Virus record (IMG/VR): IMGVR_UViG_3300010352_001565
Location: 51,055-115,054 of that record
Reading direction: 5' to 3' (one strand)
DNA length: 64,000 nucleotides
From: a virus
Shown here: piece after piece, positions 13,116-62,933 of the stretch
Layout: every line of letters starts with the position of its first letter
Numbering within the stretch: the stretch's first letter is position 1
Notes under the pieces: generated by a model
Database searches by the model: none
Told to the model about the DNA's origin: nothing
The model's input: only the letters and a program-made list of their open reading frames with translations
Translations under genes and position numbers: made by a program

Positions 13116-13415
13116 ATGCCCGCGCGCTTGCTCATCCGCTTTGATTTTGTAGCCGCGATTGACGGCACACCGTTCAGGTTCATGGTGCATCGCAACCCAA
13201 AGCCAGGCGAGGCACCATACCGAGTCACCCGCGTAAGCGACGACGGACTGGAGGTCATTTCTCACATCGACATCTCAGCTGAAGACGCACTAGCTGTTGT
13301 CACCCAGGGTCCATCCCTTCATCTCCTGAACCGCAAAGGAGTATCAGTACAGGCCCCTCTCGCAAAGTACCGCTACGCGTCAATCCTGTCACAGAGCGAG
13401 CCTCGTTTCAAATAA
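13116..13415 (+). CDS. hypothetical protein
   Basis: 99-aa ORF. Confidence 0.45.
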   Translation: MPARLLIRFDFVAAIDGTPFRFMVHRNPKPGEAPYRVTRVSDDGLEVISHIDISAEDALAVVTQGPSLHLLNRKGVSVQAPLAKYRYASILSQSEPRFK

Positions 13416-13450
13416 GAAATGTTTACATTTTGGCGGTCTTGGGGTATCAT
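13411..13450 (+). promoter_or_regulatory. variant copy of the repeated promoter (TTTACA-N17-TATCAT)
   Basis: CAAATAAGAAATGTTTACA then 17 nt then TATCAT. ATG of 13460 lies 9 nt downstream. Confidence 0.45.
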
Positions 13451-13459
13451 AAGTAGTGT

Positions 13460-13660
13460 ATGCGAAATGAATCCAAGGCTGACCAGCTGGTAAGAGCCCT
13501 TCTCGAGGAAGATGGTGGCAAGATTGAAAATGGATCCCTTTACTATTGCGGCCACTGCGACGACGTAGTGCTTGCTGCGTTTAACAGCAAGACCTGCCCA
13601 AGATGCGAGCGCGAACTTGATCCAGCCAGCAAGCGCGAAAGAAAGCCAAAAGCAAAGTAA
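13460..13660 (+). CDS. small zinc-ribbon protein (ESKA-motif family)
   Basis: CGHC...CPRC. N-terminal MRNESKADQLVRALLEEDGG is paralogous to the N-terminus of 14478..14837. Confidence 0.5.
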   Translation: MRNESKADQLVRALLEEDGGKIENGSLYYCGHCDDVVLAAFNSKTCPRCERELDPASKRERKPKAK

Positions 13661-13664
13661 TCCC

Positions 13665-14468: not shown

Positions 14469-14477
14469 TTAACCAGC

Positions 14478-14837: not shown

Positions 14838-14838
14838 C

Positions 14839-15552: not shown

Positions 15553-15553
15553 T

Positions 15554-16234: not shown

Positions 16235-16266
16235 CTCGGAAGGGCTAACCGACCTGTAGATATGGC

Positions 16267-23075: not shown

Positions 23076-23087
23076 CGGAGGGGCCTT

Positions 23088-23136
23088 AAAAATAGTTGCA
23101 AAAAAGTGTTTACAATTTTCCGCAGAGTGATATAGT
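23088..23136 (+). promoter_or_regulatory. repeated promoter cassette copy 1 (UP-like AAAATAGTTGCAAAAAAG, -35 TTTACA, extended -10 TGATATAGT)
   Basis: TTTACA 23109-23114, 16-nt spacer, TGATATAGT ending at 23136. ATG at 23186. Confidence 0.7.
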
Positions 23137-23185
23137 GTATCCACGATTGCGGTTAATTTAACAACTAACAAATATACAACAAATT

Positions 23186-23929: not shown

Positions 23930-23961
23930 TTAGGGGTTGAACACATTTGACAAACAACGTG

Positions 23962-23990
23962 CGGCGCCTTCATCGGCGCCGTGTTTCTTA
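23962..23990 (+). terminator. rho-independent terminator
   Basis: CGGCGCC-TTCATC-GGCGCCG hairpin followed by TGTTTCTT. Confidence 0.6.
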
Positions 23991-24005
23991 CGGATTAAAG
24001 AAACT

Positions 24006-25446: not shown

Positions 25447-25495
25447 AAAATAGTTGCAAAAAAGTGTTTACAATTTTCCGCTCCGTGATATAGTT
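25447..25495 (+). promoter_or_regulatory. repeated promoter cassette copy 2
   Basis: AAAATAGTTGCAAAAAAGTG, TTTACA ~25468, TGATATAGT ~25487-25495. ATG lies ~7 nt downstream, so the transcript is leaderless. Displayed numbering and ORF-track numbering differ by 1 nt here. Confidence 0.7.
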
Positions 25496-25501: not shown

Positions 25502-26458
25502 ATGATTACGAAACAACAACTTGTTCCTGGCATGACGGTAATGGTTAACCTCCGCGGGGTCCCCACCCAAGCGACTTACGTCGACTGGAGCGCCAAATAT
25601 GACATGCCGACAGTTCGCATCGGCGACCGCGAAATGCCTCGCAAGGTTCTGTCGATCGTCTCCGGCGGCGCGACGAGCGAAGCTGCTGTTTCGGTAATCA
25701 CAGACGTCGCTGTTGCTGCTCCTGAGATCGTCGAGACCGAGACCATCGTTCCAATCAACACTCGCTTTGCTTACCTCTCGATGATGGTCGGCATGGTTGC
25801 CACTGCTACTCCTACCTCGCTGATTATCACCGGTTCGGGCGGCCTTGGAAAAACCTTCACCGTGCTTGACAAGCTCACTGAACAGGGTCTTGAAGAAGAC
25901 GAAGACTACGTGTTGATCAAAGGTTACACGACTCCCAAGTCCATGTATCGCACAATGCACGACAACCGCGACAAGATCATCGTGTTCGATGATTGCGACT
26001 CCGTGCTGACCAATGAAACCGCGGTCAATCTGCTCAAAGCCGCTCTTGAATCAATGCCCACGCGCCGCGTCGCTTGGATGACTGAACGCGGCGGCGGTGA
26101 GAGCGAAGACTCGCTTCCTAGCAGCTTTGATTTTATCGGCAAAGTTATCTTCATCAGCAACAAGCGCCTGAACCAAATCCCTCAAGCTCTCCTCTCCCGC
26201 GCGCTCTATGTTGACGTGACCATGACTGCTCCTGAGAAAATCGAACGCATGCGCAACATCGCTCCGAACGTTCGCCCTGAGCTTCCGCTCTCTGACAAGC
26301 TTGAAGTGATCGATATGCTTGACACTCTCAAGACCCGCACCAAAGACCTCAACATCCGCACGATGCTCAAGTGCCTCGACATCCGCCAGTCTGCTCCTGC
26401 TGACCAGTGGAAAGCGGTTGCTGAATACGTCGTCACCACCGGGACTGCCACTGAATAA
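25502..26458 (+). CDS. AAA+/P-loop ATPase
   Basis: Walker A (IITGSGGLGKTFTV), Walker B (IIVFDDCD), sensor-like SRALYVDVT. Start taken at ATG (MITKQQ); the track starts earlier at a TTG inside the promoter. Confidence 0.75.
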   Translation: MITKQQLVPGMTVMVNLRGVPTQATYVDWSAKYDMPTVRIGDREMPRKVLSIVSGGATSEAAVSVITDVAVAAPEIVETETIVPINTRFAYLSMMVGMVATATPTSLIITGSGGLGKTFTVLDKLTEQGLEEDEDYVLIKGYTTPKSMYRTMHDNRDKIIVFDDCDSVLTNETAVNLLKAALESMPTRRVAWMTERGGGESEDSLPSSFDFIGKVIFISNKRLNQIPQALLSRALYVDVTMTAPEKIERMRNIAPNVRPELPLSDKLEVIDMLDTLKTRTKDLNIRTMLKCLDIRQSAPADQWKAVAEYVVTTGTATE

Positions 26459-28326: not shown

Positions 28327-28374
28327 AAAATAGTTTCAAATAAATGTTTACAATTTTCCGTGGCGTGATATAGT
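28327..28374 (+). promoter_or_regulatory. repeated promoter cassette copy 3
   Basis: TAAAATAGTTTCAAATAAATG, TTTACA 28347-28352, TGATATAGT to 28374. ATG 28381 lies 6 nt downstream. Confidence 0.7.
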
Positions 28375-49982: not shown

Positions 49983-50417
49983 ATGATGACCAGCTCTGAA
50001 TTGGACAGCTTCATTGGGCGCGAGCTGAACTACCCTGACAGCCAGGTGGTCGACGCCAAGTACTCACTCATCGACAAGGACTGCTTCTTCGACGAGTGCG
50101 CGCGCATCCTACAGACCGATCTCTTCTCATTCCGCGCCCGCTATCGGAAGGAAGTCTTCGACTGCGACGACTTCGCGCTCCTGACTGTCGCCATCCTTCG
50201 CCTCGCTTACGCCAACACCAAGGATCGCCCAGAGGGCACCGCACTCGCGGTCGGCTACATGTTTTACGAGTCTGAGCAGGGACCGCACGCCATCATCTTC
50301 GCCGTCTGTCGAAGCAAGTCAGGCGAGCGCGAGCTGGTGTTCATGGAGCCGCAAACTCAACTCGAGATAACCCTCACCAAAGATGAAAAAGCTTCTACTC
50401 GTTTCTATTACGTTTAG
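49983..50417 (+). CDS. hypothetical protein
   Basis: 144-aa ORF. Confidence 0.55.
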   Translation: MMTSSELDSFIGRELNYPDSQVVDAKYSLIDKDCFFDECARILQTDLFSFRARYRKEVFDCDDFALLTVAILRLAYANTKDRPEGTALAVGYMFYESEQGPHAIIFAVCRSKSGERELVFMEPQTQLEITLTKDEKASTRFYYV

Positions 50418-50505
50418 CCTCTTGGTCCTGGCGGGATGCAAGACCAGAGAGCCGGTCCAGACCTACCCGGTCGCGCTCCCTCAGATCAAGCTGAGCGAAC
50501 CGTAG
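50383..50505 (+). CDS. candidate small lipoprotein (40 aa) overlapping the 3' end of the upstream gene
   Basis: MKKLLLVSITFSLLVLAGC has the lipobox LAGC. Alternative frame. Confidence 0.25.
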   Translation: MKKLLLVSITFSLLVLAGCKTREPVQTYPVALPQIKLSEP

Positions 50506-50512
50506 TTAGCGC

Positions 50513-50812
50513 ATGAATAACGCTGCGCGCGCTGCTAAACTGATCGGTGCTCTTCTCGAAGACGAATTTCATCCTGACGAGTTCGGTCAGTACGCCGACC
50601 TGGCTCGCGAAAAGTCTAAGAGCGGAAAAGCCGATGTCTCGCTCCCTCCCATGCAGTCTGACGGCGAGATTGCCGACGATCTTCTCCAGGTTGCTGAGCG
50701 CCTGACTGGGCTGTCTAACCGCGTCAGGTCGAATCCCCGCGTCCAAGCCCTGTTGCAACAAGCGCTTGATGCCGCCGATGAAGCCTGCGAGATCCTCGAT
50801 AACGAGCTTTAA
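50513..50812 (+). CDS. hypothetical protein
   Basis: 99-aa ORF. Confidence 0.5.
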   Translation: MNNAARAAKLIGALLEDEFHPDEFGQYADLAREKSKSGKADVSLPPMQSDGEIADDLLQVAERLTGLSNRVRSNPRVQALLQQALDAADEACEILDNEL

Positions 50813-50815
50813 CCC

Positions 50816-52018
50816 ATGAACTACCTCGACAACTCTGCCCCAAAAGGAACGCACTGCCTGTACAAAGTGGTCGCCACCGCAGGCGCAGGTGGAACTGGAG
50901 CGCAAAGCGCTGATTCGAACATCGTCGACCTGCTCACCACACCTGCGGCTCCGCTCACGTGCCAGGCAAACGGGACTATCACGGATGGAGCAACTTCAGG
51001 ACCCATGGACATTCAGTGGCCTCCATCTTCATCGCCTGTGGTCGAGCTGTACCGCGTGCTTGAGGGGACCACAACTGGAGGTCCTTACACCGAAGTCGCT
51101 ACTGTCCCAGCCGGAGACAGCCTGCATGTCGTTCTCTCGCGCCCTCTTGGAACATACTTCTATGTCGTCGTAGCGCATAACGCTTCTGGTGACTCCACTT
51201 ACTCTCAGGAGTCATCCTCGAGTATCATAAATGGCGGGTTCTCAGGCGGATCAGTTCCAGCTCTGACCGCCGTAATGGGACCGAACGGACACCCTGTCCT
51301 CACGTGGACTGGAGTTGAAGATGCCACTGGCTACAAGCTTCGCATTTGTGATCCTGGCCTGAACCAAGATTGGGACGAGACGCTGAACGACGGAGAGGGA
51401 GGAATTGTCTACACCCAGATTCCGTACAGTGTCGGTGCAGAATCCGCGGTTGGAGAGTTTGACGCTACTGACCGCACTTACTACGACTCTGCCACGTCAC
51501 GGTGGACTGACGACGGCACGGACCGCAAGGTCTGGTACCGCATCTGCGCCGTGAGAGAAGGTTTCGAAGACGAGTACTGCGCGCCAGTCGAGCTTGACAT
51601 CGCTCCCTTGCAGTACGGACTTGACGCCCCAGTTATTACAGTCCAGCGCTTAGATCCTGCGCTCAACGGCGGACGCCACTTCCTCATCAGCTGGCCTGTG
51701 GTTGACGGAGCGACATACTATACGGGTCAGAGGTTCACATCTGGTGGAAGCATGCCGCTCACTTCACAAGGAACAGGAGCGGCGACAAACCAGAACGTCA
51801 TCGATGGCGCGGACAACGACCTTGAATCTGCTGGTGGTGGAGCGTGGGTTGTTTCACAAACGCCTGATGGGATGTGCCATGTCTACACCGCAAGCGGATC
51901 CAGCATGACGAGTGGAACAGGAATTGGAGACGAATTCTGGGTATTTGCATGGAACGGGAACCTGAAGAGCCATTCGTCAAACCGCATTGACGGCTGGGCA
52001 CTCCCGCCTCTCACCTAA
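50816..52018 (+). CDS. protein with three fibronectin-type-III-like repeats
   Basis: Repeated W-x-P/T...Y-x-V Fn3-like units (IQWPPSSSPVVELYRV, LTWTGVEDATGYKLRI, ISWPVVDGATYYTGQRF). Confidence 0.6.
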   Translation: MNYLDNSAPKGTHCLYKVVATAGAGGTGAQSADSNIVDLLTTPAAPLTCQANGTITDGATSGPMDIQWPPSSSPVVELYRVLEGTTTGGPYTEVATVPAGDSLHVVLSRPLGTYFYVVVAHNASGDSTYSQESSSSIINGGFSGGSVPALTAVMGPNGHPVLTWTGVEDATGYKLRICDPGLNQDWDETLNDGEGGIVYTQIPYSVGAESAVGEFDATDRTYYDSATSRWTDDGTDRKVWYRICAVREGFEDEYCAPVELDIAPLQYGLDAPVITVQRLDPALNGGRHFLISWPVVDGATYYTGQRFTSGGSMPLTSQGTGAATNQNVIDGADNDLESAGGGAWVVSQTPDGMCHVYTASGSSMTSGTGIGDEFWVFAWNGNLKSHSSNRIDGWALPPLT

Positions 52019-52065
52019 AAATAGTTGCAAAAAAGTGTTTACAAATTTCCGTGGCGTGATATAGT
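52017..52065 (+). promoter_or_regulatory. repeated promoter cassette copy 5
   Basis: AAAATAGTTGCAAAAAAGTG, TTTACA 52038-52043, TGATATAGT to 52065. ATG 52072. Confidence 0.7.
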
Positions 52066-52071
52066 CGTGCC

Positions 52072-52329
52072 ATGGTTACGAAAAACTCTATCACGCTGAA
52101 CGAAGCGCTTGACGCTGGTTTCATCGGCGACGACTGCTACGTCACATACGACATCGTTCGTCCTGACGGTAGCCGCTGCGGTCAAGCTCAGTTCCACTAC
52201 GACACAACCACCTGCGGTTTCTACGCGGGCCAGCTGTTCCGGAACGAAGACGGCAGCATCAAGACGGTCATCCTCGGCGAGGATGGAGTGAACGCTGTGT
52301 TGGTCAAATCCGCTAACCCCCTGAAATAA
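52072..52329 (+). CDS. hypothetical protein
   Basis: Leaderless ATG. Confidence 0.55.
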   Translation: MVTKNSITLNEALDAGFIGDDCYVTYDIVRPDGSRCGQAQFHYDTTTCGFYAGQLFRNEDGSIKTVILGEDGVNAVLVKSANPLK

Positions 52330-52331
52330 CC

Positions 52332-52766
52332 ATGAAACTCGTATCTTTAAATGGCAGAGAGCTCAAGGTCGGTTCGCGCGTGATGGCCGATTTTGGCGGT
52401 GGCACCGCCTGCAATATCGTCTCAATCGACGGTTCAAACATCGGGATCGAAACTGTCCGCGGTGGCGCTGACTACGGCGCGTGGGACCACATCGAGCCAG
52501 AGCAGATCGGCGCCAAGTGGGTGGTAACCGGAGAAGACACCTGTGGCAAGTGCGTTACGACCTCTGAATACGTTTTGGCCGCGTGGTTCTCAGACGAGAA
52601 TGCGCAGTTCAGGTTTCACTGCTCGCTTCCGAAAAGCCTCAAGGCTTACCGGACGCGCTGCGCCAAATACAAAAAGTCGCGGTTCGGCGTCGCGGTTAGC
52701 GCTGACGAACCCAACGCCAAGCGCATCACTGAGTTCCGCAAAATCGTGGAGGCGCTGAACAAATGA
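52332..52766 (+). CDS. hypothetical protein
   Basis: 144-aa ORF. Confidence 0.55.
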   Translation: MKLVSLNGRELKVGSRVMADFGGGTACNIVSIDGSNIGIETVRGGADYGAWDHIEPEQIGAKWVVTGEDTCGKCVTTSEYVLAAWFSDENAQFRFHCSLPKSLKAYRTRCAKYKKSRFGVAVSADEPNAKRITEFRKIVEALNK

Positions 52767-53098
52767 ACAACAAACCAGCAACCCACGCGGACGTAATCAA
52801 GGTGCTTAAAGGGCTGATTGAAGCTCAGGCCAAGGGAGAGAAGATCTACGCTTACATCCCAGTAACCTTCATCGTCAACAACGTCGAGATGAACAGCTGG
52901 ATTCCTGTTGATCCTGCGAGATACATCGAGCTCTTGCAGTGCTGCGACGCCGAGACCAAGTATGCCTGCCACGTCGAGATCGAGCCTGACGGCGAAGTCT
53001 TCTTCCACCCGCATGCTGCGAACTTCGGCATCGACGACCAGCGTGCCTTCTTCCACCCGCATGACGCGAACGCCCAACCTACCGAGTTATGGCAATGA
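52763..53098 (+). CDS. hypothetical protein
   Basis: Internal duplicated FFHPHAAN/FFHPHDAN motif. Confidence 0.5.
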   Translation: MNNKPATHADVIKVLKGLIEAQAKGEKIYAYIPVTFIVNNVEMNSWIPVDPARYIELLQCCDAETKYACHVEIEPDGEVFFHPHAANFGIDDQRAFFHPHDANAQPTELWQ

Positions 53099-53280
53099 AA
53101 CAGCAATTCGTAGTGTTCAACACGGTAACCAAGCGCTACGTCGGCAAGAGGCAGGCGCCAAACGCCCGCAACGTCGACGATGCGAAGAAGTTCGCAACAT
53201 CTGACGAAGCCGCGACCAAGTGCCGCGAGCTGACAAACGAGACGGGTCAACCACACTCAGTCGAAACCATTTACCAATAG
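53089..53280 (+). CDS. small hypothetical protein
   Basis: 63-aa ORF. Confidence 0.45.
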   Translation: MAMKQQFVVFNTVTKRYVGKRQAPNARNVDDAKKFATSDEAATKCRELTNETGQPHSVETIYQ

Positions 53281-53694
53281 ATGAAAACAGACCTCTTTAC
53301 ACTGAAGCAGATCGCCTACCGCGCCGGTCTCTACAGGCGCGACAACGAGCCAGTTCCGGCCCACATGGTCAACGAGCTTCTTGACGCGATCTCGAACCTG
53401 GGACCGACGTCGGTCGACCTCACACCCGCCCAGTTTATCGAGTTCCTGTGCAGCAGGGACTTCGTTATCGCGTTTTCCGATCGCGATGGAGGAAACGGCG
53501 AGCTATGCGACGGCATCACCAACTTCAAGATGTCCAAGCACGGGAAGGTCGAGATCTTCGAGAGACTTCCGAATCGCATTGAGGTAGAGATCGCGGGTGA
53601 GAAGGTCACAATCTCATCAGACAACCGCCTGGAAGACGAGGACGTCAAGGACATCCTTTCGAATCCCATGGCTTACATCGACGGTGGCGAATGA
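53281..53694 (+). CDS. hypothetical protein (paralog of the partial gene at 63761)
   Basis: FVIAFSDRDGGNGELCDGITNFKMSKHGK vs FVILFEETAGTETCEGFTNFRLSTSPNMHRG. Confidence 0.55.
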   Translation: MKTDLFTLKQIAYRAGLYRRDNEPVPAHMVNELLDAISNLGPTSVDLTPAQFIEFLCSRDFVIAFSDRDGGNGELCDGITNFKMSKHGKVEIFERLPNRIEVEIAGEKVTISSDNRLEDEDVKDILSNPMAYIDGGE

Positions 53695-54014
53695 ACTTCT
53701 TCGAGAAACATGACGCTATCGCCCTTTACGGGCTGGCGGTATTCCCGCGGATCACACTGCTGATCGGGTCGTTCGCGACTGGCGGCGCACTCTGGTGGCT
53801 CACTTGGCTAATTGCCCCTCATGTCCTCGTGGCAATACTGGCGATTCCGTTCTTTGGCGATCACCCGATACTCGTCACATACGCCTGGGTCTGCGCCTTC
53901 TACGGCACAAGCGGCGAGCACAAAGCAGTGAACGTGATTAAAGGCGCTCACAAGAAACGCCAACTTAGAAAAGCAATTCAGAAACTTGCAAAACAGGGCC
54001 ATGCGAAAAACTGA
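53691..54014 (+). CDS. multi-TM membrane protein
   Basis: Three hydrophobic segments. Confidence 0.5.
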   Translation: MNFFEKHDAIALYGLAVFPRITLLIGSFATGGALWWLTWLIAPHVLVAILAIPFFGDHPILVTYAWVCAFYGTSGEHKAVNVIKGAHKKRQLRKAIQKLAKQGHAKN

Positions 54015-54279
54015 ACAAAAGCAATACTACTCGTATGACGGCGCGAGCAGCGAGGTAACGCACCGCGCTGGGTCTCTTGAAGAGCTACTGGAAAAGATCT
54101 TGAAAAGCGCGGGTAAAGAGTGGACCCGACTCAAGGTCAGCGGGTGGGTCAAAGGCGACCCAAGCTCAGAGCCTCTCTGCTTTTTTGTAAAAAGCGTCCA
54201 CTCAGCTGACGACAGCGCGAGGCAGCTGAAGCTGGCCACCGTGCAGCGCGCAGCAAAACAATTGAAAATACTCGAATAG
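54001..54279 (+). CDS. hypothetical protein
   Basis: ATG at 54001. The track ORF starts at a TTG at 53986. Confidence 0.45.
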   Translation: MRKTEQKQYYSYDGASSEVTHRAGSLEELLEKILKSAGKEWTRLKVSGWVKGDPSSEPLCFFVKSVHSADDSARQLKLATVQRAAKQLKILE

Positions 54280-54282
54280 CTT

Positions 54283-54849
54283 ATGTGGATCAAATGGAAA
54301 TATAATGATCACGGCCACCCTGACTTCAAAGAGCTGGAGATTCCAGACGATCTTGACGGGTGGGAAACAGTTGAAGAGTGGATCTGTGAGCGAGGTCTCG
54401 TGCCTCAATACAGCGAACGGTTCAGCACATCACGGATCAAGTGGGAGAAGCTTGAGCTGACCACTGAGGAGCTTAAAACGCGTAGGATCGCAGGGCTTGA
54501 GGCGTGCATCGCGAGCCACGAGAGCGCTTTGAAAGAAGCGAGGAGCCAGCTGGCTGAGCTGAAACCGGCAAAACTGGTCTCATTCAGCAACCTGCCGCTT
54601 GGCACCCGGTTTCGCTACCCAGGCAGCGACCGAGTCTACACCATACTCGAGCAGAGACGCCACCGCAAAGACAGCGAGCCGTGCCACGGCGTGGTCGCAG
54701 TGTGGGAGCCAAACATGGTGGACAAGGTGAATGAGACCTTCGATCCGCAACACCCGCACGTTGGCCGCTGGCATGGACAAAACATCTTCAGGCACGCTCC
54801 TGTTGAATGCGGCGGCGATTGCCCAGACATGGTTGAACCGATCGACTAG
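54283..54849 (+). CDS. hypothetical protein
   Basis: 188-aa ORF. Confidence 0.55.
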   Translation: MWIKWKYNDHGHPDFKELEIPDDLDGWETVEEWICERGLVPQYSERFSTSRIKWEKLELTTEELKTRRIAGLEACIASHESALKEARSQLAELKPAKLVSFSNLPLGTRFRYPGSDRVYTILEQRRHRKDSEPCHGVVAVWEPNMVDKVNETFDPQHPHVGRWHGQNIFRHAPVECGGDCPDMVEPID

Positions 54850-54850
54850 C

Positions 54851-55189
54851 ATGAAGACAAAGATATTTTACAAAGTGCGCCGCAAGGACGGGAAATACTA
54901 CAACCCGTCGAAACCAGGAAACCGAGTTGACCCTGCGTTCGACGACAAGGGGAAGCCATACGCCTCGTTCAAGCATGCGCAGCGAGCTCAGGAATTCTGC
55001 GCGTCTGCGGTAAACAACCACTGGGTCCCTGCCGTACCAAAGACGCCGGTCGAGACTGACATCATCAAGTTCTCGTTTGAAATCAAAGAGATTGGCGTGG
55101 TCACAGAGAAGATGCTGAAATGCTTGCATAAGCACAAGAAAGCAAGCAGCGACACCATCTGGTGCGAAGACTGCGGAAAGGCTTGGTAA
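54851..55189 (+). CDS. hypothetical protein
   Basis: ATG at 54851 (MKTKIFYKVRRKDGKYYNPSK). Confidence 0.55.
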   Translation: MKTKIFYKVRRKDGKYYNPSKPGNRVDPAFDDKGKPYASFKHAQRAQEFCASAVNNHWVPAVPKTPVETDIIKFSFEIKEIGVVTEKMLKCLHKHKKASSDTIWCEDCGKAW

Positions 55190-55192
55190 ACC

Positions 55193-55438
55193 ATGAAACT
55201 GAACCCCACACTCCGCCATTACATCTGGAACTTCTTGATGTTCGCCATGCTGCTCCTGGCGCTCCCGCTGTTTTACTGCGTGGTAGTGCTTCCAACCCAC
55301 GTCCTCACCTCTTACATCGCGCTCGTAGCGTCAGCAGTCGGTGTGCTTGCGGCGTTCACCGCATTTTACGAGCGATACCGCGTCTACAAATTGAACGAAG
55401 CCAGGCGAGCCCGCAAGCGCCGTTCTGCTCTGAAATGA
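55193..55438 (+). CDS. small two-TM membrane protein
   Basis: Hydrophobic FLMFAMLLLALPLFYCVVVL and IALVASAVGVLAAF. Confidence 0.5.
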   Translation: MKLNPTLRHYIWNFLMFAMLLLALPLFYCVVVLPTHVLTSYIALVASAVGVLAAFTAFYERYRVYKLNEARRARKRRSALK

Positions 55439-55558
55439 AGACAAATGGCAAAGGCGACGACTGGCGCAAATCAACCGACTTTAAGGCGTATCGCGACAGA
55501 TTCCCCAAATCGATGGGGCCGAAGCCACAACCGAAACAAAAAGTCCGAGTAACCCGTA

Positions 55559-55891
55559 ATGAAAGCAACGTTCCAAAAAATCCCTAAACCCACTGGAAAC
55601 GCCGGCGTAGGTCGGCTGCATCACCACGAAATCAAGGTCAAAGGCAAGAAGTGCGGCACGATCACCTTTGACGGCCAAGACAACGCCAACCCCAAGGGCA
55701 CCAACAAGTGGATCATCCGGCTCACAACCGTTGACCCGACTGCCCCGTGCGGATGGCGCTGGGTGACGATGCGCACCCGGTTCGACAACGACAACCTGGC
55801 CAAGAACTTCGTCGAGGAGAGCCTTGGCACGATCAACCGGGAGTACAAGCTCCACTTCATCCACGAGGGCCCGCAGCAACAAGCAGCATAA
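55559..55891 (+). CDS. hypothetical protein
   Basis: ATG at 55559. Confidence 0.5.
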   Translation: MKATFQKIPKPTGNAGVGRLHHHEIKVKGKKCGTITFDGQDNANPKGTNKWIIRLTTVDPTAPCGWRWVTMRTRFDNDNLAKNFVEESLGTINREYKLHFIHEGPQQQAA

Positions 55892-55897
55892 ATCTGT

Positions 55898-56458
55898 ATG
55901 GAAACATTCCCGCCTAATCCCGGCTCCCCTAAACCAATCCTGGGAGCAGCGTTCACTGCCGAGAAGTATGATCCAGCTCCTCCGACTGCGGCTGTTCCTC
56001 GCAAGGAGTTCAAGAGCTCTGATGGGTTCACCTTCGACGAGCTTGTCGAGCGCCGGCGCATCGCGGAGAAGGTCCAGCGCGAAGCCTACGAGCATCTGCA
56101 GCAGAAGATTAGCGAGCTGACGCCCGCCCAGTCTGCGCTCGCCGTGGCATGCCACAACGTGGTTCGGGAGGGAGTGTACATGCACCGCTGGATGAAGCAG
56201 TACGAGGCCCAGGAAGCGCAGCCGTGCCAATCATGCGGCTGCACGCCCGCCGAGAAGAATCCAGGCGAGTGCCCGCGCTGCTACGCCGAAGACCAGCTCC
56301 AGTTAGCCACCGCCATGCCAGACTGCCTCGCTGCGACGTTCAATGTTGCCCACGAATACATCGGTCATTTGAAAGGGGTTAGCGTCTCTGGCGCTGACCG
56401 AATCGCCGCTCAGGCGATGGTCGAAGCATTAACCAAATTCCTAGACGGACGCTCATGA
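55898..56458 (+). CDS. hypothetical protein
   Basis: 186-aa ORF with Cys pairs CQSCGC...CPRC. Confidence 0.55.
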   Translation: METFPPNPGSPKPILGAAFTAEKYDPAPPTAAVPRKEFKSSDGFTFDELVERRRIAEKVQREAYEHLQQKISELTPAQSALAVACHNVVREGVYMHRWMKQYEAQEAQPCQSCGCTPAEKNPGECPRCYAEDQLQLATAMPDCLAATFNVAHEYIGHLKGVSVSGADRIAAQAMVEALTKFLDGRS

Positions 56459-57327
56459 AAACCAAGAAAGTTATATTCCCATCGCAGATCACGCTGGTGG
56501 TCAATCGCAAAAATCTGAAGGACATCGGGCCGGTCAAAAACATCTTCATGGAGCTGGTCAAGCTCTGGATGAAGAAGCGCGGGTTGCCGATGCTCGACCA
56601 GTTTTCAAACCCGATGTACAAGGCATTTTCAGCAGCGTCGCTCGAGGTTACACAGTTCGACCCGAGGGTAGCTCCGAGAAAGCGCTGCTTGCACAACGGT
56701 TTCACCGCGCTGTACGTCTCAGGTAAGGGAAACGAGGAAGCAATTGCGGCAATAAACCGCTTCTATAAGGATGCTCAAGTTGGAAGTCTCGACCATCAAG
56801 CATTTCAAAAGGTTATCAAGCTGGTTGGGGACAGCGAATACGTCCTTGTGTACAACATCTTGCCGCCGATGAATGGGCTACCACGTCCATACGACGTCGT
56901 TCATGACACCGTCGACGCTCAGCTCGTGGAGCTCAGAGCTAGAACCGCGCAGCTCGAGCAGCTTAACAAGCAACACAACGAGCTTTCTCACTACGTTCAC
57001 AAGTCGTTTGACGAGTTTGCAGAGACGTTCAACCACTACATTCGTGCCCACGCGGAAAAGTTGCTGCGCTTCTCCCCGAACTACTGGGCAAAAGCTGTTC
57101 AGCTTCCAGAGCTTGGCAGAGGACGCGTTGCGATAAGACTTCCAGAAGAAGGACAGAGCGTTGTATACTTCACATTCGAGCTTGCTGGAGCGTACGGCGT
57201 CAACCTCCAAAAGTTTGCCAGCATCGAGATGGTCGCCAAATGGGTGCAGAACCTGATCCACAGCAAAACGCCGAAGAAGGAGCTCGATGCCTGGATCAAT
57301 CGCGGCTGGGTGACACCGATCAAATAA
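56455..57327 (+). CDS. hypothetical protein (paralog A of tandem pair)
   Basis: N-terminus MKTKKVIFPSQITLVVNRKNL...LVKLWMKKRG parallels that of the next gene. Confidence 0.6.
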   Translation: MKTKKVIFPSQITLVVNRKNLKDIGPVKNIFMELVKLWMKKRGLPMLDQFSNPMYKAFSAASLEVTQFDPRVAPRKRCLHNGFTALYVSGKGNEEAIAAINRFYKDAQVGSLDHQAFQKVIKLVGDSEYVLVYNILPPMNGLPRPYDVVHDTVDAQLVELRARTAQLEQLNKQHNELSHYVHKSFDEFAETFNHYIRAHAEKLLRFSPNYWAKAVQLPELGRGRVAIRLPEEGQSVVYFTFELAGAYGVNLQKFASIEMVAKWVQNLIHSKTPKKELDAWINRGWVTPIK

Positions 57328-57358
57328 GTGTTTACAAATTTCCGTAGATTGATATAGT
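57321..57358 (+). promoter_or_regulatory. repeated promoter cassette copy 6 (UP part overlaps upstream stop)
   Basis: CAAATAAGTGTTTACA, TTTACA 57331-57336, TGATATAGT to 57358. ATG 57368. Confidence 0.65.
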
Positions 57359-57367
57359 AGGGGTCGT

Positions 57368-58282
57368 ATGAAGAAATCATTCCCATCACGGGTGGTGCTG
57401 AAGGTGAACCGCAAGGTCCTTCTTGCAATGAACCAGTCCGATAGCTCGAATCTAGTTGTGGCTCTCCTGAAGCGCTGGATGGCTGAGCGCGGCTACGCTT
57501 TGAAGGACAGGCACGGAAACGCATGCTACAACCACTGGACGTCCGGTCGCGTAGCTGTGGCGCAGCTTGACTACCGAAAGGAGATGAAGTTCACCGCCAT
57601 CTACGACAAAGTCGACGGGAACATTCATGCAATCAACGCCCTCCAAGGAATGATCAACGAGGCGAACACAAACGTCAAAGGGTCTTACACTCCAGCCGAC
57701 ATCGTCAAGAGCTACCGCAAAATGGCAGAGCTGATCGGCAACATCGAGTATCACATGGAGTTCATCGCCAACCCGAACCCACGCTTTGACTTTGTTCCAG
57801 ACAACGTCGAGGACGGCATCGGGTCTGGCAATGGCAGATCGATGGCAGAACTTCAGGCGTGCTACGCCACAGCGCAGCGGGCTGAGCGCGAACTAACCCA
57901 GCGCATGGAAGCGGCGGCTGTAAAGCTGCGCAAGTTCATCGCTGATCTTAACAGCGCTCTCGGGAAGCTGAGCACCAGCGACACCACTGACCACGGCTTT
58001 TTGTGCGAGAACGGGCACGGCGACAGCAACCCATTCTTCAACCCATCCTATTTCAACCACCACAACAACAAGATCTACTTCACCGCCGGTATCCCGCGCA
58101 CCGGCCAGTCAATGCTGCTGCTCAACGTAGCCGACCGCACAGGAGCAATCTGCGCGAATGGCCGACACTTCGTGGACCTGAGCCGCTTCGCGAGCATTAA
58201 GGAGCTCGCCCGCGAGATCAACTCGCTGATGAATGACACGTCGACCCTGACGCAGTGGAAGGAGAAAGGTTACATCAAATGA
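57368..58282 (+). CDS. hypothetical protein (paralog B of tandem pair)
   Basis: MKKSFPSRVVLKVNRKVL...LLKRWMAERG. Confidence 0.6.
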   Translation: MKKSFPSRVVLKVNRKVLLAMNQSDSSNLVVALLKRWMAERGYALKDRHGNACYNHWTSGRVAVAQLDYRKEMKFTAIYDKVDGNIHAINALQGMINEANTNVKGSYTPADIVKSYRKMAELIGNIEYHMEFIANPNPRFDFVPDNVEDGIGSGNGRSMAELQACYATAQRAERELTQRMEAAAVKLRKFIADLNSALGKLSTSDTTDHGFLCENGHGDSNPFFNPSYFNHHNNKIYFTAGIPRTGQSMLLLNVADRTGAICANGRHFVDLSRFASIKELAREINSLMNDTSTLTQWKEKGYIK

Positions 58283-58497
58283 AATCGCTCGCGGCTTTAA
58301 TGGACGACGCAAAGAGGCAGCGGGACTGCATGGACAACCCACGCACCTTCTTGGCGCTGTTTCCGACAGGACCACGCAACGGAAGATTCATCGACCCGTA
58401 TCTCGCGCTAGTCGAGATTGATGGGATCGGGATCTCTTCGTTCCCGCGTGACCTGTTACACGAAACTCAAGCAACCTGGGCAGACGAAAAGGACTGA
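58279..58497 (+). CDS. hypothetical protein
   Basis: ATG at 58279. Confidence 0.45.
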   Translation: MKSLAALMDDAKRQRDCMDNPRTFLALFPTGPRNGRFIDPYLALVEIDGIGISSFPRDLLHETQATWADEKD

Positions 58498-58498
58498 T

Positions 58499-58777
58499 AT
58501 GAAAAACAAACAGATGTCGCGAGACGAGCTGATTACGCTGCGAGACCAGATCAAGGACATCCTTGACCAAGTCGAGCGATTGATCTCTCCAGACTGCGAG
58601 TGCGGGCACGACTGGGACAATCCTGGTGGAACCGAGCGCCGTCGCAACAAGGGCGGAAACTGGGTCGAACACACTGGAGGGAAGACAGGCCACTGGGAAG
58701 GCGGCACCAACATCGTCGAGTACGTCCGCACATGCAAACGTTGCGGAGTCGAAGAGGTCGTTTCAACCTACGCATAA
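58499..58777 (+). CDS. hypothetical zinc-binding protein
   Basis: ATG at 58499. CECGHDWDN...CKRCG. Confidence 0.5.
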   Translation: MKNKQMSRDELITLRDQIKDILDQVERLISPDCECGHDWDNPGGTERRRNKGGNWVEHTGGKTGHWEGGTNIVEYVRTCKRCGVEEVVSTYA

Positions 58778-58781
58778 TGCT

Positions 58782-59504
58782 ATGAAAGAAGCCTGTGAAA
58801 TAAGCCCAATGTTCAGAGACGTCATTCTCGACAGAGAGGAGTTCCAGGCGGCGCTGTACGCGAGAGCCAAGGTGCCGCACTACCCGACACTCAGCTTCCA
58901 CGCTGATGTACCTGGGAATCCTGACCACCGAGGAGGTCTAATCCTTGAAGGAGTCATCGTCGACTCTCTGACCGTGCGCTATTCAACGACCGACGGGCGC
59001 CCAGTCCTGAGCGTCAACCTGAACTCGCCCGAAAGAGTCCAGCTCAGCGTCAACAACATCCGCTGTTTCCAGGTCAGGACCGCGCGCTACTGGAACGAAG
59101 CGCATCCACTGACAGCAACGTTCCACCGCATCGTCGCGCACAAGAGCTCTCAGCCTGGACGTCCTGATTGGCTCAAGACGCTTGTCGAGCGATTCAATGC
59201 TGCGCATCCACGCCAGGAAAAGAAGCGCGTGCGAAAAGCAGCGATGCCGAAGAAATGGAGCCGTGAAAAGATCCAGGACCAGTTTACAGGATTGCTTAAA
59301 AAGGATGGCACTCCGATGTCCCGCCAGCAGCTCCACATCCTGCGCAAGAAGGCCAAGGGTCTCTGTGTAGTGTGCAGCAAGCCTGCTCTCGGCATCCACT
59401 GCCTGGAACACTCAGTCGAAGCCCGGGAGCGCCAACGCAAGATCAACAAGTCCCGCAAGCGCCTGAAAAACGCCATGAGCTACAAAGCGGAAAGGGAAGC
59501 ATGA
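58782..59504 (+). CDS. hypothetical protein with basic C-terminus
   Basis: ATG at 58782. Confidence 0.5.
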   Translation: MKEACEISPMFRDVILDREEFQAALYARAKVPHYPTLSFHADVPGNPDHRGGLILEGVIVDSLTVRYSTTDGRPVLSVNLNSPERVQLSVNNIRCFQVRTARYWNEAHPLTATFHRIVAHKSSQPGRPDWLKTLVERFNAAHPRQEKKRVRKAAMPKKWSREKIQDQFTGLLKKDGTPMSRQQLHILRKKAKGLCVVCSKPALGIHCLEHSVEARERQRKINKSRKRLKNAMSYKAEREA

Positions 59505-59695
59505 ATGGAATGACTCCAACTAGAGACGAAAATGAGATGTTCACCGAGGCCGACAGCATCACCTATTATGACCCAGGACAGGGCTCAATTCTAAGGAGAG
59601 ACTCGGACAAAGAGTTTGTTCTGACGCTGGGGAACGGAGGCCACATCAGGCTTGTCAGCGAAACTCCGATTAAAGCTTTTTTAAAGGCTGAGTAA
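59501..59695 (+). CDS. small hypothetical protein
   Basis: ATG at 59501. Confidence 0.45.
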   Translation: MNGMTPTRDENEMFTEADSITYYDPGQGSILRRDSDKEFVLTLGNGGHIRLVSETPIKAFLKAE

Positions 59696-59907
59696 TGAGC
59701 GGATTCTTATTTGACAGCTTTGAAAACCTGCGCCAGCGCGTCAACGAGCTGCTTCCTCAAGAGCAGGACGCACTGCGCGAGCACCGCTCGCTTTACCTGG
59801 AATGCATGTGCAGCCCGGGCAAGCTGCTGAAGGACCGCGAGACTCTACAGGAACTAAGGGACGGCATCCTGCTGTTCGGCGTGTACGAAACCTGCAAACC
59901 AAAATGA
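59695..59907 (+). CDS. small hypothetical protein
   Basis: 70-aa ORF. Confidence 0.45.
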   Translation: MSGFLFDSFENLRQRVNELLPQEQDALREHRSLYLECMCSPGKLLKDRETLQELRDGILLFGVYETCKPK

Positions 59908-60116
59908 ACCAACTAGTCAAGCTTGAAAACTCGCAGGGACGCCACGTCTGGCTCAACCCTGAAACAGTCGCAAGTATCCAGGTCACAGAGAGATCTCGCG
60001 ACATCACCGAGGTGAAGCTCATGAGTGGCGAGGTCGGGAATTACAGAGGGACTCCGGACGCATTCCTGCTGACTCTGCGCTTGGGTGTAAGTCAGATGCC
60101 AACCTCTGAGAGATGA
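59904..60116 (+). CDS. small hypothetical protein
   Basis: ATG at 59904. Confidence 0.45.
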   Translation: MNQLVKLENSQGRHVWLNPETVASIQVTERSRDITEVKLMSGEVGNYRGTPDAFLLTLRLGVSQMPTSER

Positions 60117-61498
60117 TTGCAAATCCGTGCAGGTTCGATTCCTGCCGCGTTCGCCATAGTTATGGCATGCCCGCAAAGGACATTCTAGCCCAGCTGATTG
60201 GAGAGTCGGTCACATACCGGCTTCCCCAATCTAAAAACGTCCTCTTCTACGATTTCTACGTTCTCTCGTACCTTCGCAGCCTGAACCTCGATCCCACGTC
60301 AAAGGACTCCAGGGCGTCATTCTTCGGCGGCGAGGTGAAAGAGGATGTCGATCACGCCGTCCAGGTGCTGGTCCCCTACCTCCGTCAGAACCTCCTCGAC
60401 GCTACATTCCTGAGCATCTGCGCTGAGATCCGCCACAGCCTCACTGAGCTTCCTGAGTGGAAGCAGTTGGCCAGGAAAATGCCAATGATGTTTGACTACG
60501 CTCGGAACTATCTTTCCAAGCACGCAGGCATGCTTCGCCATACTGGAGAGCCATACCCGGTCAGAGGGAATTCAAAGAGCTATGACGATTCAGTCGTGGC
60601 GGCGCTTCGCACGATCAGAGACAGGCAGTCAAGCAAGCGCGAGTTCGTGTTTAATTGCCGCAAGATGTTCGCGTCAGGGGGCTGGTCGGCTGATTACGGC
60701 GGCAGACCGTGGGCCGGCATCTGCGACGCCTGGATTCGCTTGCACGACACCAACCCTGGAGATCCGAGCGCGAACTTCGTCAGCATCGACCACCTGTTCG
60801 ATATGCAGCACAACACGGGCACGGTGCTCAACAAGGTGAAGGAGTACGCGATCGACGGAGGATATAGCTGGCTTTCACGCGGTCTCGACAACAAGGCCAA
60901 GGTCTCGTCTATCCGGCTGCTGCTTCCAAACTGCTCAAGCGACATGCAACGTCTAGCGGCGAAAACGCTGAAGACGGGCGGAGAGCCAGAGATTCAAAAG
61001 CCTAAGGACTGGCCAAAGTACTTCCAATACGGAGCAACGCTGTTCAAAGCCGAATCTGCAACGTGCAAAGGTTTTTGGTACAAGGACGCGACAAGTGAGT
61101 GGATCCCACGGTTGTCACCAGAGTCGCTCTTTGACTACGCGAAGAGGCACAACTTTAGGGCGCTTACTCCTAAGGACGTGGCCGTAAGCTTTCCGTGCGC
61201 TATTGGCTACAGCAAGCAGTACACTGGGTATGACGCCAAGAAGGCAAAGTATACCAGCGCCGAAGATGAAGAAGAGCGGCGCGATCCTCCGCCTCGCGTC
61301 CACGGCCACGCGCATGTAACATTCCTTCACGACGGAAAGACCTATGACCTGGTGTACTCGCACTTCTGCGGCGGGACGCTGATCCGGCTTCCGAAAGAGC
61401 TCGGTGGAAATTGGGGAACCTACTACAAGGGCGAGATCAAGGACGGAAAAGTGATTCACAGGATCGGCCCAGTTGACTTCAACAGCGGGCACAAGTGA
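60113..61498 (+). CDS. hypothetical protein (461 aa)
   Basis: Long ORF. No motif recognised. Confidence 0.6.
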   Translation: MIANPCRFDSCRVRHSYGMPAKDILAQLIGESVTYRLPQSKNVLFYDFYVLSYLRSLNLDPTSKDSRASFFGGEVKEDVDHAVQVLVPYLRQNLLDATFLSICAEIRHSLTELPEWKQLARKMPMMFDYARNYLSKHAGMLRHTGEPYPVRGNSKSYDDSVVAALRTIRDRQSSKREFVFNCRKMFASGGWSADYGGRPWAGICDAWIRLHDTNPGDPSANFVSIDHLFDMQHNTGTVLNKVKEYAIDGGYSWLSRGLDNKAKVSSIRLLLPNCSSDMQRLAAKTLKTGGEPEIQKPKDWPKYFQYGATLFKAESATCKGFWYKDATSEWIPRLSPESLFDYAKRHNFRALTPKDVAVSFPCAIGYSKQYTGYDAKKAKYTSAEDEEERRDPPPRVHGHAHVTFLHDGKTYDLVYSHFCGGTLIRLPKELGGNWGTYYKGEIKDGKVIHRIGPVDFNSGHK

Positions 61499-61506
61499 TT
61501 CTCTAG

Positions 61507-62892
61507 TTGGTGAGAATCTTAGTTTTAGCCATTGCTAGCATCGCGCTCGTCTGCAACGCGTCCACGAACATCGTCATCGACTGCTCTAAAATTGTCGGCG
61601 AGTTCAAACCCCTAAACAGCATCAACGGCGGCATCCTCGTTAAGGATGGCACATACGACCTGACCGAGCCGAGCAAGAAGGCTGCTTTCCCGATGTTCCG
61701 CCTCCACGACTGCGTCTTCGCCTACCACGAGGTGGTTGATGTCCACTGCATCTTCAGAGACTTTAGGAACGACCCGTCGAATCCGGACAACTACTTCTTT
61801 GCGAGGACTGACGATTACCTGCTTCCAATCCTGACCAACGGCTTCAAGGTGGTTTACCGGCTTGGAGAGAGCATCGAGCACACTCCCAAGAAGTACTTCA
61901 TAAACGCGCCTGATCCGCACAAGTGGGCTGAGATCTGCAAGGGAATCATCCGTCACTACAACCACGGCTGGGCTAACGGGTTTCACTACGGAATCGTCTA
62001 CTGGGAGATCTGGAGCGAGCCAGAGAACTACCTCAACTGGAAGGGAAGCGATGAGGCGTACTTTCAGCTGTACGACATCGCCTCAAAGGAGATCAAGAAG
62101 GAGTTCCCGTACGTGAAGATAGGCGGTCCGTCAATGGGTAACCCTTGCATTCCTAGAGACAACTACTGGGTCATCCAGTCGTTCACTGCATCATTTTTGG
62201 AATACTGCCGTGCGCGCAGGTCTCCGATCGACTTCTTCTCGTGGCACAACTACTCTAACAGCCCTTACGAAGTCTGCTCAAAGGCCAAGGTCATCAGAGA
62301 GGCGCTGAACAACTACGGATACACCAACTCTGAGTCGCACCTGAATGAGTGGGGCCACCTGCCTGGAAACAGCTGGGAGGGACACATCTCTAAATCTCAC
62401 AAGGAGGCTCAGAAGTGGTCAGAACGTGTGAACAGCTTCGACGGCGCCGCTTATACAATGGCGGTCATGCTGGATGGCCAGGATGCACCAATAGACGCTG
62501 CGTTCACCTTCAACTCGGACACCGGAAGATTCGGCATTTACGACCAGTGGGGAACGCCGCGGCCGACGTGGTACGCGCTGCAAGCCTTCAGCTGGGTGCT
62601 GTCTGGCACCAACATCAGGATCAAGACCACAAATCAGGACCGCGTCTCGGTCGGTGCTGGTGTTTCAAAGGATAAGAGTAAAGTGCAAGTCCTCGTCAGC
62701 CACCGCGCCAACCCTGAGAAGCTCTCGCTGAGCGTCACCAACCTGCCGTGGTCTGGGCAGTCTATCGTCGAGGTGTTTGAGGTGACAGAGGACAGCTTGG
62801 CTCCGATCTTCAAGCGCAGCATGGGAAGCGTCTCCGTTCCGCTTACTCTCTCATCCTCATCTGTCGTGCTCATTCGGGTCATGCCAAAATAG
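61507..62892 (+). CDS. secreted glycoside hydrolase, clan GH-A (GH39/GH30-like) - candidate polysaccharide depolymerase
   Basis: Signal peptide ILVLAIASIALVCNAS. Clan-A catalytic acid motif VYWEIWSEPEN. TTG/GTG start. Its stop TAG lies inside the next promoter's UP element. Confidence 0.65.
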   Translation: MVRILVLAIASIALVCNASTNIVIDCSKIVGEFKPLNSINGGILVKDGTYDLTEPSKKAAFPMFRLHDCVFAYHEVVDVHCIFRDFRNDPSNPDNYFFARTDDYLLPILTNGFKVVYRLGESIEHTPKKYFINAPDPHKWAEICKGIIRHYNHGWANGFHYGIVYWEIWSEPENYLNWKGSDEAYFQLYDIASKEIKKEFPYVKIGGPSMGNPCIPRDNYWVIQSFTASFLEYCRARRSPIDFFSWHNYSNSPYEVCSKAKVIREALNNYGYTNSESHLNEWGHLPGNSWEGHISKSHKEAQKWSERVNSFDGAAYTMAVMLDGQDAPIDAAFTFNSDTGRFGIYDQWGTPRPTWYALQAFSWVLSGTNIRIKTTNQDRVSVGAGVSKDKSKVQVLVSHRANPEKLSLSVTNLPWSGQSIVEVFEVTEDSLAPIFKRSMGSVSVPLTLSSSSVVLIRVMPK

Positions 62893-62933
62893 TTGCAAAT
62901 AAATGTTTACATTTTTGCGTATCGTGATATAGT
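62886..62933 (+). promoter_or_regulatory. repeated promoter cassette copy 7
   Basis: AAAATAGTTGCAAATAAATG, TTTACA 62906-62911, TGATATAGT to 62933. No ATG follows for ~117 nt. Confidence 0.7.

Follow-up and report, generated by a model that had tools for sequence, protein, structure and literature searches.

Near-identical predicted promoters next to start codons in an uncultivated phage that appears to dispense with Shine–Dalgarno sites

The 64,000-nucleotide (nt) stretch of DNA analyzed here (the window) comes from an uncultivated phage (IMG/VR record IMGVR_UViG_3300010352_001565, positions 51,055 to 115,054). Coordinates refer to the whole window unless they follow a label, and the labels L001, L002, L007–L026, L103, and L111 denote contigs and loci that were compared with it. 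The genes of the window include those for a T4-type portal (PF07230), a collagen-like tail fiber, a radical SAM protein, and a helicase. Among its genes lie seven strong copies of a promoter-like cassette, with TTTACA hexamers that start at 23109, 25467, 28347, 34201, 52038, 57331, and 62906, together with one weak variant. The copies are listed below with their scores against a 50-column weight matrix, which we built from the seven copies and used to scan both strands; ORF stands for open reading frame and aa for amino acids.

23088..23136, + strand: cassette 1, AAAAATAGTTGCAAAAAAGTG-TTTACA-N13-TGATATAGT; 82 bits; next ATG at 23186
25447..25494, + strand: cassette 2; 79 bits; ATG at 25502, 7 nt past the −10 element
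28327..28374, + strand: cassette 3; 82.5 bits; ATG at 28381, 6 nt past the −10 element
34181..34228, + strand: cassette 4; 81 bits; ATG at 34235, 6 nt past the −10 element; stop codon of the upstream ORF (TAG 34185) inside
52017..52065, + strand: cassette 5; 83 bits; ATG at 52072, 6 nt past the −10 element; stop codon of the upstream 400-aa ORF, TAA 52016
57321..57358, + strand: cassette 6, truncated; 60.6 bits; ATG at 57368, 9 nt past the −10 element; stop codon of the upstream ORF, TAA 57325
62886..62933, + strand: cassette 7; 77 bits; predicted transcription start A62940; stop codon of the upstream GH39-like ORF, TAG 62890
13411..13450, + strand: weak variant, AAATAAGAAATG-TTTACA-N17-TATCAT, no TG; ATG at 13460, 9 nt past the −10 element

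An initial annotation, made from the letters of the window, had described near-identical modules of about 50 bp, and seven strong copies indeed lie where it had placed them, with matrix scores of 60–83 bits. The next best site scores −8.5, and the minus strand yields no copy at all. A search of the window for the 19-nt core of the cassette returned six matches against 0.01 expected. The cassette family is a discrete set, and all of its members are found on the plus strand with the genes. One more full copy, the eighth, is located 4.6 kb past the end of the window on the same contig (L002 20673), where it precedes a 120-aa gene; this copy extends the set first described, and the next 5 kb contain no other. 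Cassette 3 also recurs as an identical copy on a separate contig, L019.

The consensus of the cassette reads aaAatagttgCAAA.AA.TGTTTACAa.TtTccGt..cgTGATATAGT. The initial annotation had written its layout as TTTACA-(16 nt)-TGATATAGT, a pattern that finds no match in a literal search. The 16 nt hold for the spacer between the hexamers TTTACA and TATAGT, and the layout that occurs is TTTACA-N13-TGATATAGT, with TG at −15/−14. The elements named at the outset, an A-tract resembling an upstream (UP) element, a near-consensus −35, and an extended −10, were all found in the cassettes. TTTACA, present in all eight copies, matches the −35 consensus TTGACA at five of six positions, as does TATAGT the −10 consensus TATAAT, and both the 16-nt spacer and the TG of the extended −10 occur in every strong copy. 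Directly upstream of the −35 lies the A-tract CAAA(A/T)AA(A/G)TG; the −35 block (A/G)TGTTTACA follows CAAA(A/T)AA in every copy. AAAAAAGTG fits the consensus of the proximal UP subsite, AAAAAARNR (PMC4132738), exactly in three copies, and the others deviate by one mismatch. About 40 of the 50 cassette positions are nearly invariant, spacer and distal half included, and A-tract subtypes (AAAAAAGTG or AAATAAATG) are paired with spacer subtypes in a mosaic fashion from copy to copy. Copy 57331 is devoid of the distal AAAATAGTTG half. The variant at 13411, with its 17-nt spacer and no TG, has only AAATAAGAAATGTTTACATTTT in common with the family (A-tract, −35, and start of the spacer) and is best classed as a weak relative.

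In six of the eight strong copies (the eighth included), the −10 element is separated from the first ATG by no more than 7, 6, 6, 6, 9, and 6 nt, and this ATG opens an ORF of 85–318 codons (binomial P = 6.5e-7 for at least six of eight). The initial annotation had counted the weak variant rather than the L002 copy as the eighth site, and its range of 6–9 nt is correct for that set as well (7, 6, 6, 6, and 9 nt, plus 9 nt at the variant). Transcription canonically starts seven nt after the −10 element, so a 6-nt gap puts the predicted start on the A of the ATG. Counted from the ATG, TATAGT begins 12 nt upstream in four of these copies, 13 nt in a fifth, and 15 nt in the sixth; a TANNNT about 12 nt upstream of the start codon is a signal used for diagnosing leaderless genes in bacteria (PMC3160421). 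Leaderless translation requires an AUG start (PMC8459731), and all six close-spaced genes begin with ATG. These start codons have no usable in-frame start upstream of them, and the N-termini of the ATPase and DUF6011 homologues lie no more than a few residues away from them. Most targets of the cassettes are genes that have no homologues, and one is a tRNA-like RNA. The close-spaced genes of the window are as follows.

25502..26458, + strand: candidate leaderless gene; AAA-type ATPase (phrog_1250), 318 aa
28381..28719, + strand: candidate leaderless gene; 112 aa, no family match; first in a run with SPFH and vault-shoulder-like proteins
34235..34657, + strand: candidate leaderless gene; 140 aa, DUF6011 (phrog_20259); N-termini colinear in homologues
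52072..52329, + strand: candidate leaderless gene; 85 aa, no family match
57368..58282, + strand: candidate near-leaderless gene; 304 aa, no homologue; leader of 2–3 nt predicted
13460-13660, + strand: 66-aa ORF at the weak variant, a called gene in the public collection

Among the genes that follow cassette 3 in this run are those for an SPFH/Band-7 protein (29027-30160) and a protein with major-vault-protein shoulder and repeat domains (31365-32705). Metagenome homologues of the vault-like protein carry the annotation "major vault protein"; the contigs on which these homologues were found are too short to show gene order.

Two strong copies are not close-spaced. At copy 23109, the gap from the −10 element to the ATG is 49 nt, which agrees with the 43-nt leader described earlier. 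This leader of about 43 nt (23143-23185) is CA-rich, contains no Shine–Dalgarno (SD) site (ACAACTAACAAATATACAACAAATT), and is the only long leader in the cassette family. The CA-rich stretch resembles SD-independent translational enhancers. Copy 62906 is followed by 117 nt before the next gene. The initial annotation gave this length and its structured nature correctly, and regarded it as a leader; what it contains is better described as a tRNA-like element.

62942..63043, + strand: tRNA-like element of about 100 nt, probably driven by cassette 7; ends 7 nt before the ATG at 63051

The predicted fold of this element comprises an 8-bp acceptor-like stem, a D-like hairpin of 6 bp with a 4-nt loop, a long GAAA hairpin, and a perfect T-arm (GGGTTCGAGTCCC), with no anticodon arm. 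In Rfam, tRNA-Sec comes closest to it (23.4 bits, E = 0.01) but does not reach the gathering score of 47. Neither ARAGORN at default settings nor Rfam at its gathering threshold reports an RNA gene in the window. ARAGORN returned the element as a tRNA only with relaxed thresholds and an intron, and this model is poor. The 5′ end of the element coincides with the predicted transcription start (A62940, 2 nt upstream). An RNA product or a processing signal is a likelier role for it than that of a leader. The protein encoded downstream (63051-63758) has no homologue in IMG/VR.

The absence of SD sites, which the initial annotation had pointed out at the cassette genes, is real but not specific to them. 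An SD core precedes 16% of the window genes vs 12% of random positions. In the portal relatives L020–L022 and in the ATPase locus L024, the corresponding values are 0–12%, while 41–68% of the ORFs are preceded by an SD core in other phages with the ATPase. Judged from these frequencies, the phage and its relatives do not use SD sites, which suggests a host lineage whose translation initiation is independent of SD sites. Because the whole genome is SD-free, the missing SD at the cassette genes is no evidence by itself, and the argument for leaderless mRNAs has to be made from the −10-to-ATG spacing alone. A-rich regions are found upstream of start codons in the phage and its relatives.

The portal protein has about 25% identity with those of cultured T4-like phages and about 350 relatives at 55–68% identity, many of them on contigs of 200–260 kb. 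Relatives encode a gp25-like baseplate protein, a DnaB-type helicase, a Cpn10/GroES-like protein, a PolI-type 5′–3′ exonuclease, and a lipopolysaccharide heptosyltransferase. The window sequence itself is present in several metagenome assemblies, on contigs of up to 222,710 bp. None of 50,697 deposited phage records matched 14 kb of the sequence in a Megablast search, no genome in that collection is close to the window, and the searches made did not bring up a relative of intermediate distance. The exact pattern of the full cassette has no match in IMG/VR, and in the metagenome collection it matches only L019, which belongs to the same phage. Because the six other contigs of the phage are all 99.99–100% identical, conservation within the lineage is uninformative. 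No cassette was detected in the portal relatives L020–L023, whose contigs cover structural regions only.

We turned to the ATPase (phrog_1250) for comparison with other genomes. This protein has about 600 homologues in IMG/VR, and we fetched 80 IMG/VR loci. A promoter of the form TTGACa/TTGCCa-N17-TGTATAAT lies just upstream of the ATPase gene in about 75 of these 80 loci. In L025–L103, where the ATPase gene lies about 10 kb into each locus, a near-consensus promoter nearly always has it as its first gene; many of the leaders at these loci end with TTGATTGATTAAGGAG. The closest ATPase locus, L024 (42% identity, SD-free), contains a two-copy cassette of its own (9926-9971 and 11373-11410) with the same layout and a different sequence: an A-tract-GTATGTAC-N13-TGATAG, or AAAAAAAGTATGTAC-N13-TGATAG. 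One of these copies lies 10 nt upstream of an ATG, and the other precedes a hairpin and a CA-rich leader. The ATPase homologue of L024 aligns from query position 10, with its ATG 24 nt upstream. The homologues of the DUF6011 protein are too distant for such a comparison; they have SD sites or leaders of about 30 nt.

Parts of the cassette also occur in unrelated genomes. At 683-739, L001, an unrelated AT-rich viral contig, shares 25 nt (TAGTTGCAAAAAAATGTTTACAAAT) with the upstream half of the cassette; TGgTACAAT comes next, then 6 nt and the ATG of a 123-aa ORF. This site is positioned directly downstream of a tRNA-Thr gene, and the other genes of L001 have SD sites. The core with the extended −10, searched as TTGCAAAWAARTGTTTACA-N12-14-TGNTANNNT, was found in 12 bacterial genomes (L007–L018), all of them metagenome-assembled genomes of Clostridia or Bacilli, where by our own estimate, which is not a computed value, less than one chance match would be expected. 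There, the motif stands upstream of SD-led genes or of riboswitch-like leaders. These occurrences mark the motif as a generic form of strong bacterial promoter, and in those genomes it has the look of a common strong sigma-A promoter.

The cassettes are embedded in a densely packed array of genes. A terminator lies upstream of only one of the eight strong copies, namely, a hairpin upstream of L002 20673 (z −3.6), and in four cases the preceding gene ends within the cassette (stop codons TAG 34185, TAA 52016, TAA 57325, and TAG 62890). Given this lack of upstream terminators and the overlap with stop codons, the cassettes are best understood as internal, additive promoters in one long co-directional array, and the earlier proposal that they define at least eight transcription units is overstated. 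Terminator-like sites are no more common than in shuffled sequence over the 27 kb scanned (1-13000 and 50000-64000). Two clear intrinsic terminators were noted near the window, both outside of it: L111 17540-17600, after a dihydrofolate reductase gene, and L002 20617-20648, after a patatin gene. At 10004-10538, a 536-bp gap without called genes separates a divergent helicase gene from the plus-strand array. Since this gap holds neither a cassette nor the TAGTTA motif described below, promoters of other types must exist. The window contains no T4 late motif (TATAAATA).

Taken together, these observations make it probable that the cassettes are one class of very strong promoters for the housekeeping sigma factor of the host, with leaderless starts in most cases. 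In the mechanism that we propose from the sequence, host RNA polymerase with its housekeeping sigma would read the cassettes without any phage factor. The alpha C-terminal domains would contact the A-tract CAAA(A/T)AA(A/G)TG, and sigma regions 4, 3, and 2 would bind (G)TTTACA, TG, and TATAGT, respectively, across the 16-nt spacer. Transcription starting 6–8 nt past the −10 element would begin on the A of the ATG, or 1–3 nt from it, in six of the eight strong copies. The resulting mRNAs would be leaderless or nearly so, and the ribosome would bind their 5′-terminal AUG directly. Read-through transcription, together with translation that is coupled or re-initiates, would provide for the later genes of these dense arrays, which have no SD sites. 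Of the two exceptions, one copy would give rise to the 43-nt CA-rich leader, and the other would start transcription at the 5′ end of the tRNA-like RNA. By its likeness to T4 early promoters, the class may be one that acts early in infection.

Several results weigh against this reading. The ATPase homologues have their promoter followed by a leader of 25–30 nt with AGGAG, so leaderlessness is not conserved: the promoter at this position appears to be ancient, the leaderless arrangement does not. In L026, an SD-free relative, GTGCAAAAATCGTG...TGGTATAGT is followed by an SD-free leader of about 34 nt. Over their first 30 or 45 nt, the cassette-proximal ORFs do not differ in folding energy from other genes (p 0.66). 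The distal TAGTTGC and the spacer sequence A(A/T)TTTCCG(T/C) are conserved and are not known polymerase contacts; this extra conservation hints at an additional factor or at homogenization of the copies. Finally, the 12 matches in Clostridia and Bacilli might have been taken to indicate the host, an assignment that we rejected since these bacteria depend on SD sites and the phage family does without them.

Homogenization could be part of the same picture. We regard it as possible, although doubtful, that recombination keeps the promoters near-identical, in the manner of mobile regulatory cassettes (PeSL-like) that shuffle ORFan genes; this would add to the housekeeping-promoter reading rather than replace it. 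The nearly invariant 40 of 50 positions, the mosaic of A-tract and spacer subtypes, and the lack of detectable homologues for most flanked genes are consistent with such exchange, as are the strong terminator hairpin upstream of the eighth copy and the similar promoters of T4/PST PeSLs, conserved sets of which have been proposed to recombine (PMC4122927). The stem-loop directly upstream is, however, missing from seven of the eight copies, and the strain variants are all identical, which leaves no indels between related genomes to compare. The extra conservation would have another origin if TAGTTGC and the spacer sequence AWTTTCCGY were the binding site of a phage or host regulator, by which the class is switched on (as middle promoters) or switched off after early infection. 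Conservation beyond the known polymerase contacts argues for a regulator, and so does the 25-nt match followed by TGgTACAAT, 6 nt, and ATG in the unrelated L001. We nevertheless judge it to be unlikely because the −35 is intact and near-consensus, unlike that of MotA-type middle promoters (PMC2988021), because no candidate regulator was identified, and because copy 57331 has the same geometry without the distal segment. The proximity of the copies to ATG could reflect genome compaction: the promoters would be real, the proteins would come mainly from read-through mRNAs by coupled translation, and the short 5′ ends would be translated poorly. In its favor, terminators are missing upstream of seven of the eight copies, the stop codon of the preceding gene falls within four cassettes, internal initiation evidently works in a phage that initiates throughout without SD sites, and the 5′ ends are not exceptionally poor in structure. 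Compaction does not account for the gaps of 6 nt in four copies and for the lack of any gap of 0–5 or 10–40 nt among the six, and all six use ATG, as leaderless translation needs (PMC8459731). On balance, we give this explanation little credence.

Two further explanations dispute that the cassettes are bacterial promoters, or promoters at all. We consider it very improbable that they are archaeal-type promoters of an archaeal virus, in which the A-rich block would be the transcription factor B recognition element, TTTACAAATTT a TATA box about 30 nt upstream of a leaderless start, and TGATATAGT a proximal element. SD-free and leaderless starts with a TA-like signal about 30 nt upstream are typical of archaea (PMC3160421), and an AT-rich block is present at −34..−24. 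On the other hand, the two most conserved blocks fit the bacterial −35/TGn/−10 spacing exactly, the DnaB-type helicase, Cpn10/GroES-like protein, PolI-type exonuclease, and lipopolysaccharide heptosyltransferase of the relatives are traits of phages with bacterial hosts, and the homologous genes in other phages have sigma-70 promoters with SD sites. That the cassette is not a promoter but a miniature mobile element, a replication iteron, or a recombination site is hardly credible: it is highly conserved and dispersed, as such repeats are, but it occurs on one strand and in gene orientation, abuts start codons, has no terminal inverted repeats, is not clustered, and matches the promoter consensus element by element. 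The initial annotation had named a both-strand repeat without gene association as the outcome that would speak against promoters; all copies are on the plus strand and abut gene starts. An N4-type hairpin across the −10 element was also considered and was rejected, as only three of seven copies fold better than shuffled sequences.

A second start-proximal motif, (c)G-TAGTTA(G/T)-N3-5-ATG (also given as TAGTTA-N4-6-ATG), came to light in the same region. We counted TAGTTA in the window, in its extension, and in three portal relatives. An ORF-opening ATG follows within 2–9 nt at 14 of 29 occurrences, against 69 of 1960 (3.5%) for all permutations of its letters; the best-scoring control was TATAGT, the −10 hexamer of the cassette, with 7 of 18. 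In at least 10 of 16 sites, TAGTTA contains the stop codon of the upstream gene, and the motif is kept in phages with 55–68% portal identity. The sites are the following.

11143, 11874, 13106, 14466, 16257 (TAGATA), 43932, 49971, 50503, and 60157, + strand: TAGTTA sites of the window
8209, − strand: TAGTTA site of the window
L111 11908; L020 3855 and 14345; L021 3628 and 2724 (− strand); L022 9108: TAGTTA sites of the relatives and the extension

TAGTTA may represent a second promoter class with a −10 only, or else a signal at stop–restart junctions, and as a lead it may be more novel than the cassette. A test for late or structural functions among the TAGTTA-preceded genes gave no PHROG hits. 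A second tRNA-like element was noted at 60056-60156, where a T-arm (GCAGGTTCGATTCCTGC) is followed by CGCGTTC-G-CCA, a tRNA-like 3′ end, 10 nt before the ATG at 60167. Its cloverleaf-like 101-nt fold is no more stable than those of shuffled sequences, and it shares sequence with a TAGTTA motif and, in its 5′ half, with a called 70-aa gene. Both tRNA-like elements (62942-63043 and 60056-60156) end 7–10 nt before an ATG, so their excision would free a near-leaderless mRNA, a process that may be likened to mitochondrial tRNA punctuation. One could imagine a phage-wide strategy for making mRNAs that start at the start codon, in which the sigma-70-type cassette, the TAGTTA motif read by a phage factor, perhaps late, and the excision of tRNA-like elements all take part across this SD-free family of about 200–260-kb genomes; we think that such a unified scheme is somewhat unlikely.

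If transcription starts map as predicted, the cassettes would provide a clean natural case of maximal-strength promoters fused to start codons in an SD-free genome. Such a case would help to explain how large phages that have not been cultivated gain control of hosts whose translation starts without SD sites, and it could serve as a source of compact promoter and leaderless-start parts. The motif would also allow likely early genes to be marked in a widespread, unannotated phage family (about 350 portal relatives). The finding overturns nothing.

Leaderless phage mRNAs have precedents. The cI mRNA of phage lambda transcribed from PRM is one example, and the Thermus phages phiYS40 and P23-45 produce leaderless middle and late transcripts from a class of extended −10 promoters. 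Those promoters differ from the cassettes in having no −35, in relying on phage proteins that retarget the polymerase, and in operating in a host that favors leaderless mRNAs; here, −35 and UP element are intact. The rrnB P1 promoter combines an A-tract UP element with a 16-nt spacer and a G+C-rich stretch between −10 and the start. The cassettes are similar to promoters of this type in the UP A-tract, the 16-nt spacer, and the rather G+C-rich stretch from −10 to the start, and unlike them, they have TGn, a better −35, and fusion to a coding start. The leaderless TANNNT genes of Actinobacteria, Deinococcus-Thermus, and other groups are comparable in that the first T of the −10 lies 12 nt upstream (as in four copies here), the start is AUG, and there is no SD (PMC3160421, PMC8459731). 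Their promoters, however, usually consist of a −10 alone or with a weak −35, whereas the full UP/−35/TGn/−10 set is repeated here as a cassette in a phage.

The closest likeness is to the early promoters of T4 and its relatives, to which the T4-type portal of this phage and the gp25-like baseplate protein of its relatives also relate it. T4 early promoters have been described as "uber" UP/−35/TGn/−10 promoters with additional consensus regions (Hinton, PMC2988021). Those of T4-like phages have GTTTAC at −36..−31, an A-rich tract at −40..−44, and a GT/TG element before the −10, and they precede novel ORFs and tRNA genes (PMC1524935). The cassettes have the exact GTTTAC, the A-rich tract, TGn, a TAnnnT −10, and further conserved positions, and they likewise occur in many copies per genome upstream of small novel ORFs and, here, a tRNA-like RNA. 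T4 early promoters are read by unmodified host sigma-70 polymerase (PMC2988021, PMC1524935). The spacer of the cassettes is 16 rather than 17 nt, their −10 is TATAGT, and the copies are far more uniform; moreover, T4 early mRNAs have leaders with SD sites, while in the cassettes the −10 abuts the ATG in an SD-free genome. The PeSLs of T4/PST, with TTTACW-N17-TAYWAT promoters in highly conserved sets that are proposed to recombine efficiently, are also near-identical short early-promoter cassettes among ORFans (PMC4122927), although the upstream stem-loop that defines them is found at only one of the eight copies here. In MotA-type middle promoters, a MotA box takes the place of the −35 (PMC2988021), and by their sequence the cassettes appear to resemble the early class and not this one. 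Neither conserved early promoters nor leaderless phage mRNAs are new; what is unusual is the fusion of such promoters to start codons in an SD-free genome.

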